The notes under the pieces are model-generated. The model was not told the DNA's origin. It ran no database searches and was given only the letters and a program-made list of their open reading frames with translations. 36,303 nt of DNA from a virus. The translations under genes and the position numbers were made by a program. Position 1 is the stretch's first letter. Each line of letters begins with the position of its first letter. Shown here piece after piece: positions 49 to 36,219 of this stretch. The stretch lies in UHGV virus genome UHGV-1321070; one strand, written 5' to 3'.

Positions 49-54
49 GCCAGT
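49..54. repeat. Left copy of flanking direct repeat GCCAGT (candidate target-site duplication)
   Basis: GCCAGT lies immediately outside the left prophage terminus (TGATTAG... starts at 55); the identical hexamer follows the right terminus at 36214..36219. Confidence 0.55.
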
Positions 55-217
55 TGATTAGACTTGAGATAAATGACAGGGAATAAGTGAGATATTTATG
101 GGAAGAACTGGGTCAAAATGGGAAGAGACTAGGAGGAATATGCAATAACCTTACAGTATGTGAAAATCAGACCGGCCCGAAAAAAAAACAGAACTCGCGC
201 CAGCCTGATTGCAGATA
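55..217. promoter_or_regulatory. Prophage left terminal region with putative transposase-binding repeats
   Basis: Non-coding stretch between the terminus and the mor stop; contains GATAAATGAC (66..75) and GATATTTATGG (88..98), which are related to the right-end ATTTATCG repeats in inverted orientation. Confidence 0.5.
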
Positions 218-607
218 TTACTCTTTTTTCTCCGTATCTGCATCGGGTTCATCAGCAAATAGCTTGCCCTGCATCCGATCCAGTTCTTCTTTTCTTACCC
301 GCTTAACCACGCTGTAGACCCACTGAAGCGAAACACCAAATTTGCGGGCCAGTTCGTGGTGGTTGCGTCCGTTAAACTCCCTGAAGATTTCCCGGTCGCG
401 CTGACTGACCTTCCATACCATGCCCATCGGGAAATAAACGTTTTGCCCGCCCCAGACCTGCATCATTCGGTTCGCGACGGCCTGACCAATCTGGTCGGCA
501 ATTGCGGGCTCAATATCAATAATCTCGCGAACGGTCTCAGAGGTATGCTGTGCCAGTTCCACCAGGAGTTCCGGCCCTTTACTTCGAAACTGATTCAGGT
601 CGCTCAT
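218..607 (-). CDS. mor: Mor/C-family transcriptional activator (middle/late gene activator)
   Basis: 129 aa; pattern GGQNVYFP.G...RDREIFREFNGRN..ELARKFGVS...VY..VKRVR matches the conserved core of Mu Mor/C as I recall it; last gene of the early operon, as in Mu. Confidence 0.8.
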   Translation of the reverse strand: MSDLNQFRSKGPELLVELAQHTSETVREIIDIEPAIADQIGQAVANRMMQVWGGQNVYFPMGMVWKVSQRDREIFREFNGRNHHELARKFGVSLQWVYSVVKRVRKEELDRMQGKLFADEPDADTEKKE

Positions 608-1070
608 GTTTTACTCCCGCAGCTCTGCGCTGCCACTTCTTCAGTTTCTCAATAACACTACTTGCCTGTTCAGTATTGAGCCAGCGCAGGGCGCTGATGC
701 CCGTTTCCCGCTTGATCCACCGCGCTAATGCATTTTCTGAACGGTCACGAACAATGCCGGCAGCAGCCATTTCAAGCCATAGCGCACGGATTTTCCTGGA
801 CTGCGGATGGTTATCCAGCGGTAAACCGGAGCTGGCTTTTCCGGCAGGCTTAACGCGAAAGCCTTTCCTTTTCATGGATTCCAGCACGCAGTTTAGTTGT
901 GTGGTATCCATTCCTTTGGTTGAGGCTTTACCGGTCAGCCCCTGTAACATCTGGCGGTAGGTGTCTTCATCCATACCCAGTTCATTACGGGCAATATGAA
1001 TGAGCTGGATAAGACGTTGTTTAGTCATCATCGTTGCTCCTTTTACCTGCGCCACCGATATAATCGACAT
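579..1070 (-). CDS. gemA: GemA / Mu gp16-like regulatory protein
   Basis: 163 aa; motif LIQLIHIARNELGMDEDTYRQML...KASTKGMDTTQLN is typical of the Mu GemA (gp16) family; sits immediately upstream of mor as in Mu. Start codon uncertain (29-bp overlap with mor). Confidence 0.65.
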   Translation of the reverse strand: MSIISVAQVKGATMMTKQRLIQLIHIARNELGMDEDTYRQMLQGLTGKASTKGMDTTQLNCVLESMKRKGFRVKPAGKASSGLPLDNHPQSRKIRALWLEMAAAGIVRDRSENALARWIKRETGISALRWLNTEQASSVIEKLKKWQRRAAGVKHERPESVSK

Positions 1071-1236
1071 ATAAAGGAAGCGCCACAGGCCAGCACAGGA
1101 ACATCACCGACCAGCTAATCCAGTAGCCAGCACCACTGTAACGTGAATAAAACCCTGAACGGCGGTGCAGTTCAGCAGTACACCAACCGACAAAACAATA
1201 CCAGAACAGGGCACATACAACAGATTCAGCAGTCAT
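1021..1236 (-). CDS. Small hydrophobic protein (about 71 aa, two predicted TM helices)
   Basis: Trimmed from the 123-aa track ORF to the internal Met (MTAESVV...), which is preceded by a GGGGGG Shine-Dalgarno-like run; highly hydrophobic. Coding status uncertain. Confidence 0.3.
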   Translation of the reverse strand: MTAESVVCALFWYCFVGWCTAELHRRSGFYSRYSGAGYWISWSVMFLCWPVALPLYVDYIGGAGKRSNDDD

Positions 1237-1452
1237 TCTGAATATCCCCCCAACTGATATGAATATTACGGGCAGCAATGACAGGGTCGTTATTCCACCA
1301 TGCACCTGACATGTATTTTTCAACCTGTTCGCGTCCGGCAATAACACCAATTGTGATCCCCGGCCTGACGTTCTTAAAAAAGGCGCGGGCAAAAAGGTAT
1401 CTGGCAGATATTCGGCAGGCTTTTAATTTCCGGCTTTTACCTGATAGCGTAA

Positions 1453-2172
1453 TCATCTGGCCTCCAGTTTCTGTTGTTCCTGCCCACTGACCGGGCGGTG
1501 CAGTCTGACGTTCTGCCCTTCAAGAAACCCCGCATAGCGCGAGGCGTCGCCATTGCGGCTTCTTCCCGGTTTACGCGCTCTGGTGGTTTGCGTTTGCGGG
1601 TATTTATGTTCCAGCCACTGCTGCATCAGTTCACGTTCGTCATCGGTCAGGGCGAAGGACTGTATTTCACTGATAACGGCCAGCACCCAGCCTTCAGCAA
1701 ACTGGTCACCACGGCTGGTACGGGTGGCAGTTTTTATTCTTTTGTTCTGTGCGCTGATATATTGCTGACGCGCCTTTTTCAGCTGGCGGGCCAGCACTTC
1801 CCAGGTGTATGCAGCCAGTGCCGCACGTTCCCGGTTGCCGTAGAACCCCACAGACGGATGCGTGCCGGGGTGAATGATGGAGTTAACACCAAATACCTCG
1901 CGGATGATGTTCATCAGGCCCAGCATGTAGCGCGGTGGACGGAGACTGCCTGTCGGCCAGTAGTGACTGATGGTTTCATCAATATCACTCATAGCAATGT
2001 CGGAATGTGTGATGCCGTGAACATCCATCAGTTTACGGGCTCGGCGCAGTGCCAGAGCGGCCTCGTGCGGGTTGCCGGATGCGGCCAGCGCCAGCAACTT
2101 TTTCAGTTTCTCAATGTGTTTATTCTGGTCTGTCATTGTTCTGTATCTCCGGTATTTTTCTGCCGTTTCCAT
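1453..2172 (-). CDS. Conserved phage early protein (DUF2786-like N-terminus)
   Basis: 239 aa; N-terminal KHIEKLKKLLALAASGNPHEAALALRRARKLM resembles the DUF2786 signature found in many prophage early regions. Confidence 0.5.
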   Translation of the reverse strand: METAEKYRRYRTMTDQNKHIEKLKKLLALAASGNPHEAALALRRARKLMDVHGITHSDIAMSDIDETISHYWPTGSLRPPRYMLGLMNIIREVFGVNSIIHPGTHPSVGFYGNRERAALAAYTWEVLARQLKKARQQYISAQNKRIKTATRTSRGDQFAEGWVLAVISEIQSFALTDDERELMQQWLEHKYPQTQTTRARKPGRSRNGDASRYAGFLEGQNVRLHRPVSGQEQQKLEAR

Positions 2173-35017: not shown

Positions 35018-35491
35018 TCACGCCGCCCTCACGATATAGTTAAACGCGATATTGCGGGGGCGGGTTATGTTAAAGAATGCTCCGTTTAATTCGGCTTTTG
35101 CGCGACTGTTTGTTCCACCCAGCATTGCGTACCACAAATAATCGCTACGGTAATTCCCCGCAAACACCTTATCGCCGCCATAGTCAATATTATTTCCGTT
35201 ACTCATGTACGAGATATCAAGCGAAGAATCGTTATCGTCATGACCGCCGACCAGTGTACCTTTCTGCCATGAAAGCAACTTACGCCCCTCGTCAATCTTG
35301 CGCCCGTCGTCCCATCCACGGATAAACTCACCGCGTAAATCGGGAAGACGGAGGGTCGGGTAGACTCTGGCCAGAACAGGATATTGTTCTTTGGTGAACG
35401 TAGCTCCGTTGCACTGTAACCAGCCTGCTGGCGGTGTGGCGGTGGGCCATGGAACCGGTACACCAACAGGCAATGCAGAGCCTTCCCCCAA
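35018..35491 (-). CDS. Alternative tail-fibre C-terminal cassette (promoterless; fused to the fibre gene after inversion)
   Basis: Minus-strand ORF whose first ~65 aa are encoded by the right inverted repeat and are identical to the fibre segment; it then diverges to a different tip ending RPRNIAFNYIVRAA (current tip ends RPRSIALNYIVRAV). Confidence 0.7.
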   Translation of the reverse strand: MGEGSALPVGVPVPWPTATPPAGWLQCNGATFTKEQYPVLARVYPTLRLPDLRGEFIRGWDDGRKIDEGRKLLSWQKGTLVGGHDDNDSSLDISYMSNGNNIDYGGDKVFAGNYRSDYLWYAMLGGTNSRAKAELNGAFFNITRPRNIAFNYIVRAA

Positions 35492-35496
35492 ACCAA
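35298..35496. repeat. Inverted repeat, right arm (199 bp, perfect)
   Basis: Exact reverse complement of 33880..34078. Confidence 0.85.
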
Positions 35497-35508
35497 CGTT
35501 TATCTCTC
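35483..35508. other. Gin/Hin-type recombination site, right
   Basis: TTCCCCCAAACC-AA-CGTTTATCTCTC; the inner half-site and core are shared with the left site, the outer half-site is unique; lies 55 bp upstream of the invertase start. Confidence 0.7.
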
Positions 35509-35562
35509 AAATCCTCCCCACATTATCTCAGTACTTTAACCACTCAAAAGGGAGTATTTTTA

Positions 35563-36135
35563 ATGCTGATTGGCTACATACGTGTGTCAACAAATGACCA
35601 AAACACAGATTTGCAACGCAATGCATTAATGTGCGCAGGATGTGAACAGATTTTTGAGGACAAAATGAGCGGAACCAAGTCGGAACGACCAGGCCTGAAA
35701 CGCGCTTTAAAGTGCCTTAAAAGAGGGGATACATTGGTGGTCTGGAAGCTGGATCGGTTGGGTAGAAGAATGAAACACCTCATTGCTCTCACAGAAGAGC
35801 TACGCGCAAAAGGTGTCAATTTTCGCAGTCTGACGGATTCAATCGATACCAGCACTCCGATGGGAAGGTTCTTTTTTCATATGATGGGTGCACTGGCAGA
35901 AATGGAGCGTGAACTGATAGTTGAGCGCACGCTGGCAGGACTGGCTGCTGCGCGAGCACAAGGGAGAGTTGGAGGACGTCGCCCGAAACTGACGAAGGAG
36001 CAGCATGAGCAGATCGCAAGATTGCTCCAGAAAGGGTATGACAGAAAGCGGCTGGCAATTATCTATGATATTGGACTGTCAACGATCTACCGCTATCACC
36101 CTGTTGGGACTGTCATAACGCAACCTGAAATGTAA
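35563..36135 (+). CDS. Serine DNA invertase of the Gin/Cin/Pin/Hin family
   Basis: Start at the ATG after AAAAGGGAG (track ORF begins 129 nt upstream); MLIGYIRVSTNDQNTDLQRNAL ... VVWKLDRLGR ... SLTDSIDTSTPMGRFFFHMMGALAEMERELIVERT is near-identical to the invertase family, with a C-terminal HTH. Confidence 0.9.
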   Translation: MLIGYIRVSTNDQNTDLQRNALMCAGCEQIFEDKMSGTKSERPGLKRALKCLKRGDTLVVWKLDRLGRRMKHLIALTEELRAKGVNFRSLTDSIDTSTPMGRFFFHMMGALAEMERELIVERTLAGLAAARAQGRVGGRRPKLTKEQHEQIARLLQKGYDRKRLAIIYDIGLSTIYRYHPVGTVITQPEM

Positions 36136-36213
36136 TTCTTTTTCAAATAATGAAACGCCGCGTGGATGCCATTTATCGCACAAGATAGAGTGCATTTATC
36201 GCGCGGCGCATCA
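36136..36213. promoter_or_regulatory. Prophage right terminal region with putative transposase-binding repeats
   Basis: ATGAAACGCCGCG ... CCATTTATCGCA ... GCATTTATCGCGCGGCGCATCA resembles the Mu right end as I recall it (ATTTATCGTGAAACGC ... GCGCCGCTTCA); ends in CA. Confidence 0.65.
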
Positions 36214-36219
36214 GCCAGT
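36214..36219. repeat. Right copy of flanking direct repeat GCCAGT (candidate target-site duplication)
   Basis: Identical to 49..54, immediately outside the right terminus. Confidence 0.55.

Follow-up and report, generated by a model that had tools for sequence, protein, structure and literature searches.

The window analysed here, the whole 36,303-nucleotide (nt) stretch of the UHGV virus genome UHGV-1321070, carries a Bcepmuvirus-like prophage, a full-length myovirus of the BcepMu group. We conclude with high confidence that this prophage entered the intergenic region between yqaE and ygaV of Escherichia coli by DDE transposition and that the insertion duplicated 6 base pairs (bp) of target DNA. 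The prophage begins with TGATTAGACTTG and ends with CGCGGCGCATCA (positions 55-36213), both of its termini are present, and copies of it with the same termini lie at many other sites in E. coli, each flanked by a different 6-bp repeat.

Termini, empty site and state of the prophage

An earlier note, made from the sequence alone, had described a complete transposable prophage with both termini, TG...CA ends and GCCAGT on either side. All of this was confirmed: the hexamer directly abuts the prophage at both ends (Table 1), and the ends match those of other copies. The repeat is exactly 6 nt long, the last 7 nt of the left flank being TGCCAGT and the first 7 nt of the right flank being GCCAGTT. 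Since 12 other copies define the termini independently, the place to look for the repeat was given in advance, and the probability of a 6/6 match between the flanks by chance is therefore ~1/4096.

The insertion site could be reconstructed, as had been anticipated. Positions 1-54 joined to 36220-36303, with a single GCCAGT retained, gave a 138-nt query for the empty site, which was found once per genome in 5,417 of the 5,426 complete E. coli genomes; in 5 genomes the match is 100% identical over all 138 nt, across the junction. In strain ET881, yqaE and ygaV diverge from an intergenic region of 182 bp that contains the empty site; the insertion point lies upstream of both genes, 79-84 bp from yqaE and ~99 bp from ygaV. 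These matches and this location establish that the host is E. coli, that the flanks are intergenic and that the insertion is clean. The flanks are also AT-rich, as the earlier note had said (35% GC on the left and 34% on the right; 54.5% for the prophage). The empty-site search proposed in the earlier note does not tell a 5-bp from a 6-bp duplication, since GCCAG, CCAGT and GCCAGT all rebuild the same sequence.

No copy of this prophage was found at the yqaE-ygaV junction among the 5,426 complete E. coli genomes. Because this junction is absent from the complete-genome collection, the insertion is private to the source strain. It splits the divergent yqaE/ygaV promoter region and could alter expression of yqaE and ygaV in that strain. 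The invertase gene at the right end of the prophage points to the right terminus and stops 78 bp short of it, and the start codon of ygaV lies ~99 bp past the insertion point, an arrangement in which read-through from the prophage into ygaV is conceivable.

Over positions 55-27264, the window copy is 99.98% identical to two copies at other sites (L001 and L002), and all of its open reading frames (ORFs) are open and intact. The only structural difference is in the tape-measure gene, where 26973-27264 aligns twice to both L001 and L002, corresponding to an in-frame contraction of ~261 nt in a tandem repeat. Among natural copies, this gene ranges from 2,466 to 2,952 nt, and tail length is therefore expected to vary. 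The near-identity to other copies and the unique insertion site argue for a recent insertion, and the prophage is probably a functional lysogen that can be induced. It is also conceivable that the sequence is complete and the copy no longer inducible, that is, a recently inserted silent or defective lysogen. Such a state would fit the shortened tape-measure gene and the decay of other copies, of which L005 and L007 carry frameshifts, an internal stop and an insertion of ISEc8. We consider it improbable, because every ORF of the window copy is open, the tape-measure change is in-frame in a gene whose length varies naturally, and the copy combines near-identity to copies elsewhere with an insertion site found in no other genome of the collection. 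Moreover, Bcepmuvirus prophages, which have been listed in ST131 E. coli (bioRxiv 10.1101/2022.05.07.487787), are also reported among induced phages from gut Pseudomonadota (PMC12629997). We thus continue to regard the window prophage as a recent and probably functional lysogen.

Independent insertions and the length of the duplication

The earlier note had left two options for the duplication, either 5 bp with one ambiguous base or 6 bp, and had suggested a comparison with other members of the family. Such members are plentiful. The 600-bp left end of the prophage is present in 641 and the 600-bp right end in 598 of the 5,426 complete E. coli genomes, and ~12% of these genomes carry this prophage. 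Host genes adjoining its ends include gspL, rayT, rlmI, ycaL, ygjJ, paaZ, aes, hybB, ascB, rstB, codA, dmsC and potG. We sampled junctions from ten whole copies in complete genomes and paired further junctions from IMG/VR contigs, most of which are trimmed at one end (both junctions were present in 3 of 41 contig pairs).

The intact junction pairs numbered 13 and comprise 12 copies of this prophage at 12 sites and one BcepMu-clade relative. In 13/13, the same TG...CA termini are flanked by a direct repeat of exactly 6 bp whose sequence differs by site: GCCAGT in the window, CCTGGG at gspL, CCGGGG near rayT, CGTTGC at ascB, AAAAAC at a metal-dependent hydrolase gene, GCTTTT at rlmI, TTCTTC at aroA/ycaL, ACAAAT at rstB of ABU 83972, GCCTCC at an FHIPEP pseudogene, TACCCG at codA/codB, GGCTGC and GCACAT in two IMG/VR contigs, and CTCGCG in the BcepMu-clade relative, whose transposase TnpA is 96% identical to that of BcepMu. 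Some of these copies come from sublineages whose left end (TGATCAGACATG..., with two additional ORFs past mor) and right subterminal sequence have diverged. The 13 duplications show no evident target consensus. The true target duplication is the 6-bp flanking repeat, which is seen across two clades; of the two options left by the earlier note, the 6-bp one stands and the 5-bp one falls.

The 5-bp option amounts to a Mu-type insertion with the canonical duplication (GCCAG or CCAGT) and a sixth base that is coincidental or derived from the element. Mu makes 5-bp duplications according to published work (PMC8705779, PMC5977238), and the empty site is compatible with either length. However, a chance sixth base at each of the 13 independent insertions has a probability of ~0.25^13, an element-derived base would be constant whereas the bases beside TG and CA vary by site, and the transposase is of another type than MuA. 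A 5-bp duplication is refuted by the independent insertions surveyed, and we assign this explanation a negligible probability. Site-specific integration of a conventional temperate prophage, in which GCCAGT would be a short attachment (att) core, has virtually no standing either: short direct repeats do flank integrase-mediated prophages and a serine recombinase is encoded, but near-identical copies occupy at least a dozen unrelated sites with a different hexamer at each, an insertion-site diversity that refutes site-specific integration, a tyrosine integrase is missing from the prophage, its serine recombinase is of the small Gin/Hin invertase type and lies beside a segment seen in both orientations, and a DDE transposase with an AAA+ partner is present.

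No observation contradicts transposition by a BcepMu-type element with a 6-bp duplication; two qualify it. In strain JB2 (L007 and L009, NZ_CP182203.1), the flanks of the prophage copy are mismatched: the left one, within ygjJ, is GGGTGA, and the right one, within a lambdoid prophage, is CGTTTT. Because that genome holds two copies, a rearrangement between them (inversion or translocation) is the likely origin of these flanks. Also, the nearest curated transposase profile to TnpA in NCBIfam is IS481, at 67 bits and far below the 224-bit cut-off; the only NCBIfam matches are sub-threshold ones to IS481 and IS21.

Several further features of individual copies were recorded. The JB2 copy also carries an insertion of ISEc8, a frameshift and an internal stop. 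L034 (IMGVR_UViG_2690316248_000012), which belongs to the variant-end lineage, has a left flank (...GGACGCTGCCAGT) that ends in GCCAGT and in the octamer of the window, CTGCCAGT, at a different locus; the shared hexamer may be a coincidence or a hint of target preference. In the sublineage of ABU 83972 and K56-43-un (L011 2175-3280, L013), the left end is diverged (TGATCAGACATGAGATAAATGAAGG...) and two extra ORFs of 633 and 162 nt, which look like left-end cargo, lie between mor and the terminus. A transposase gene 99.2% identical to that of the window is present at 356532-358298 of CP088398.1, a 377-kb E. coli plasmid, and the phage therefore inserts into plasmids too.

The transposition module is of the BcepMu/B3 lineage

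The transposase TnpA retains the DDE triad (D160, D254, E290), and its only Pfam match is rve, with no Mu-specific domain among the Pfam matches. A tblastn search of 50,697 phage records matched 69 records, in which identity to TnpA is 99% (99.2%) for Escherichia phage PhiKM, 69% for phiE255, 68% for BcepMu (over 98% of the length) and 57% for Pseudomonas phage B3 (full length); Mu is absent from these 69 records. Likewise, no MuA chain appears among the PDB sequence matches of TnpA at E<=1, which are weak matches to retroviral-integrase cores only. Similarity to IS481 transposases is only ~25%. The gene for the AAA+ protein TnpB, which is 59% identical to BcepMu gp08, lies immediately downstream of tnpA.

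GenBank places PhiKM (PQ738613.1) in Bcepmuvirus. Its record (L014, 20200-20800) covers only part of the genome and shows, directly beside the mor end, a host-type gene with the annotation Fe2+ ABC transporter permease. It therefore contains host DNA, either from a prophage-derived assembly or as a packaged host flank. A literature search for PhiKM found no paper describing that phage.

Each end of the prophage has TGA at its tip and two G(A/C)GATA(A/T)(A/T)T boxes at nt 12-20 and 35-43, in inverted orientation at the two ends. Within the window, the exact box motif was found only at the prophage ends. BcepMu has the same TG...CA termini and the same box positions with the same 23-bp spacing at both ends. 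In Tn552 of Staphylococcus, the transposase binds two 23-bp repeats at each end and the duplications are 6-7 bp long; the 23-bp spacing of the boxes would agree with this.

For insertion and its aftermath we propose the following course of events as the best supported. TnpA would bind the two subterminal boxes at each end and nick at the terminal CA-3', while TnpB, as an AAA+ ATPase, would capture the target DNA. TnpA would then join both 3' ends to target phosphates staggered by 6 bp, and repair or replication of the two 6-nt gaps would produce the GCCAGT duplication. In the lysogen, the divergent helix-turn-helix (HTH) repressor would keep the leftward early operon silent. Mor would activate the rightward genes for lysis, head and tail, and packaged DNA would be predicted to carry host DNA at its ends. 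The Gin-type invertase flips the 1.6-kb fibre segment, by which host range would alternate.

BcepMu is among the closest known systems: 35 of the 52 window proteins have collinear BcepMu homologues (31-77% identity, with 77% for the sheath), and both genomes have a bottom-strand early operon that reads toward the left end, followed by a top-strand repressor, lysis genes, a Mu-like head and a P2-like tail. A 6-bp duplication is also made by the BcepMu-clade relative in our junction set. The BcepMu-like prophages SalMu, PhotoMu and ChromoMu were reportedly presented by Summer and colleagues in 2004; a literature search for these three gave almost exclusively papers on other subjects. The E. coli lineage differs from BcepMu in its Mu-type gam, in other small early genes and in the accessory genes that follow the repressor; its right end carries an invertible fibre segment and a Gin-type invertase, whereas BcepMu has an acyltransferase there and is described as lacking a tail-fibre inversion system (PMC2771037). 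The same study calls the transposase of BcepMu-like viruses 'a distant member of the Tn552-IS1604 family', places genes 1-13 of these viruses on the bottom strand and describes CA termini and virion ends that carry host DNA (PMC2771037); TG...CA termini are typical of BcepMu relatives (PMC2628397).

Pseudomonas phage B3 shares with the window prophage an early operon that is inverted relative to that of Mu and a 6-bp target duplication, described as a footprint that transposases of the B3/Tn552 family leave (PMC8705779); the inverted early operon and different transposition proteins set B3-like genomes apart from Mu (PMC5977238). B3-like phages are, however, siphoviruses with flexible non-contractile tails, whereas the window prophage encodes a sheath, a tube and a P2-like baseplate. 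Both the BcepMu and the B3 transposases have been called Tn552-related, which is the basis for the Tn552 link made here (PMC2771037, PMC8705779). Tn552 and the IS481 family have an rve-type DDE core in common with TnpA, but they are small transposons or insertion sequences and not phages.

The comparison with Mu (Muvirus) drawn in the earlier note holds at the level of function only. Like Mu, the window prophage is a transposable temperate myovirus with TG...CA ends, mor, gemA, gam, Mu-type portal, F and G proteins and an invertase-controlled fibre switch at the right end, and it follows the same life-style logic. It differs in that MuA is absent, the duplication is 6 bp instead of 5 bp, the early operon is inverted (that of Mu starts at the left end and runs to the right) and the tail genes form a P2-like module. 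By lineage the transposase is of the BcepMu/B3 type (Tn552-related).

Gene content, tail-fibre inversion and significance

The features of the window are listed in Table 1. The genes mor, gemA, gam, tnpB and tnpA are all on the minus strand and read toward the left end. Divergent from them, the gene at 8535-8996 would encode the repressor, with the lysogeny switch predicted at ~8485-8534. The early region at 1021-4057, gam included, has no counterpart in a comparison with the BcepMu genome. Within gam, a 100-nt stretch (3426-3526) is 83% nucleotide-identical to gam of Pseudomonas phage H72, a likeness that suggests module exchange among transposable phages.

Table 1. Positions of the prophage, its ends and its genes in the window (a dot marks rows given without a strand)
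Feature	Position	Strand	Support or remark
Left copy of the 6-bp target-site duplication, GCCAGT	49..54	.	One copy in the empty site (L010 2549-2554)
Whole transposable prophage, 36,159 bp, TG...CA termini	55..36213	+	Termini identical in 12 other copies at other sites
Left terminal region: TG tip and two subterminal G(A/C)GATA boxes, GAGATAAATG (66-75) and GAGATATTTATG (89-100), 23 bp apart; presumed TnpA binding sites	55..100	+	
mor, late/middle transcription activator	218..607	-	Pfam Mor 1.3e-43; 54% identical to BcepMu gp01
gemA	579..1070	-	Pfam GemA 1.3e-40
Semi-essential early region: small ORFs, DUF2786/DUF7168 protein (1453-2172), gam (3230-3760)	1021..4057	-	Pfam Phage_Mu_Gam 9.9e-41
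tnpB, AAA+ transposition/target-capture ATPase, RefSeq 'ExeA family'	4060..5265	-	Pfam AAA_22 3.8e-20; PHROG 296 'DNA transposition protein' 5.5e-93
tnpA, DDE transposase of the BcepMu/B3 lineage	5237..7006	-	Pfam rve only; PHROG 310 transposase 2e-147
Head of the leftward early operon: DUF3102 protein (7010-7924) and two small HTH proteins (7935-8306, 8296-8484)	7010..8484	-	
HTH_3 repressor-like gene, divergent from the early operon	8535..8996	+	Pfam HTH_31/HTH_3; 39% identical to BcepMu gp17 'cro/cI repressor'
Variable accessory region, three genes without assigned function (8993-9979 +, 10061-10651 +, 10689-11165 -)	8993..11165	.	PHROG families of unknown function
Lysis cassette (holin, SLT transglycosylase, Rz-like)	11263..13023	+	RefSeq annotation of the copies 99.98% identical over 55-27264; 50-61% identical to BcepMu gp21/gp22
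Packaging and head: terS, terL, Mu-type portal, Mu F, Mu G, protease, major capsid	13657..21199	+	Pfam Portal_Mu 1.6e-89, Phage_Mu_F 1.2e-25; PHROG terminase small, terminase large, protease; collinear with BcepMu
Head completion and P2-like contractile tail/baseplate (sheath 22352-23779, tube, tape measure 25175-27865, gpD/V/W/J/I)	21201..32763	+	Pfam sheath, tape measure, Baseplate_J
Tail-fibre genes: fibre (32760-34397 +), assembly protein (34397-35011 +), alternative fibre C-terminus (35018-35491 -)	32760..35491	.	Pfam Phage_fiber_2, Collar; annotation of related copies
Invertible segment with 229-nt inverted repeats (33877-34105, 35271-35499)	33877..35499	.	
Gin/Hin-type serine invertase	35434..36135	+	Pfam Resolvase 1.2e-50, HTH_7; RefSeq start 35563
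Right terminal region: CA tip and two GCGATAAATG boxes (36193-36202, 36170-36179, minus strand), mirroring the left end	36170..36213	-	
Right copy of the 6-bp target-site duplication, GCCAGT	36214..36219	.	

The 1.6-kb fibre segment lies in opposite orientation in L001 relative to the window and L002, in prophages that are otherwise near-identical. Because both orientations occur, the segment inverts in nature. The fibre gene itself contains internal repeats at 32994-33710 with a period of ~168 nt (five stretches of Pfam Phage_fiber_2); their copy number varies, with more in L012.

The phage group, the 6-bp rule and E. coli members are already on record, and the window prophage is a textbook member and an ordinary finding, which matters little beyond correct annotation. 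For annotation, Mu's 5-bp rule is not to be assumed for "Mu-like" enterobacterial prophages, and the termini TGATTAG...GCGCATCA (or the TGATCAG variant) together with the 6-bp repeat give exact prophage boundaries in hundreds of E. coli genomes. We suggest only tentatively that the E. coli lineage could be a distinct and highly successful branch of the BcepMu group, combining a B3/Tn552-type 6-bp module with a Mu-type gam and a Gin-controlled fibre switch and present in ~12% of complete genomes. If so, it would offer a natural E. coli system in which to compare 6-bp and 5-bp (Mu) transpososomes in one host.

The accessory region between the repressor and holin genes (8993-11165) gave no credible match to a defence system in PADLOC. 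The N-terminus of the protein encoded at 8993-9979 shows a weak likeness to Flk (46.6 bits, below the cut-off). This region is a swap zone: the window, L001 and L012 share the same three genes, and the other copies compared (L005, L006 and L011) have a DNA adenine methylase (Dam) and other small genes in their place.

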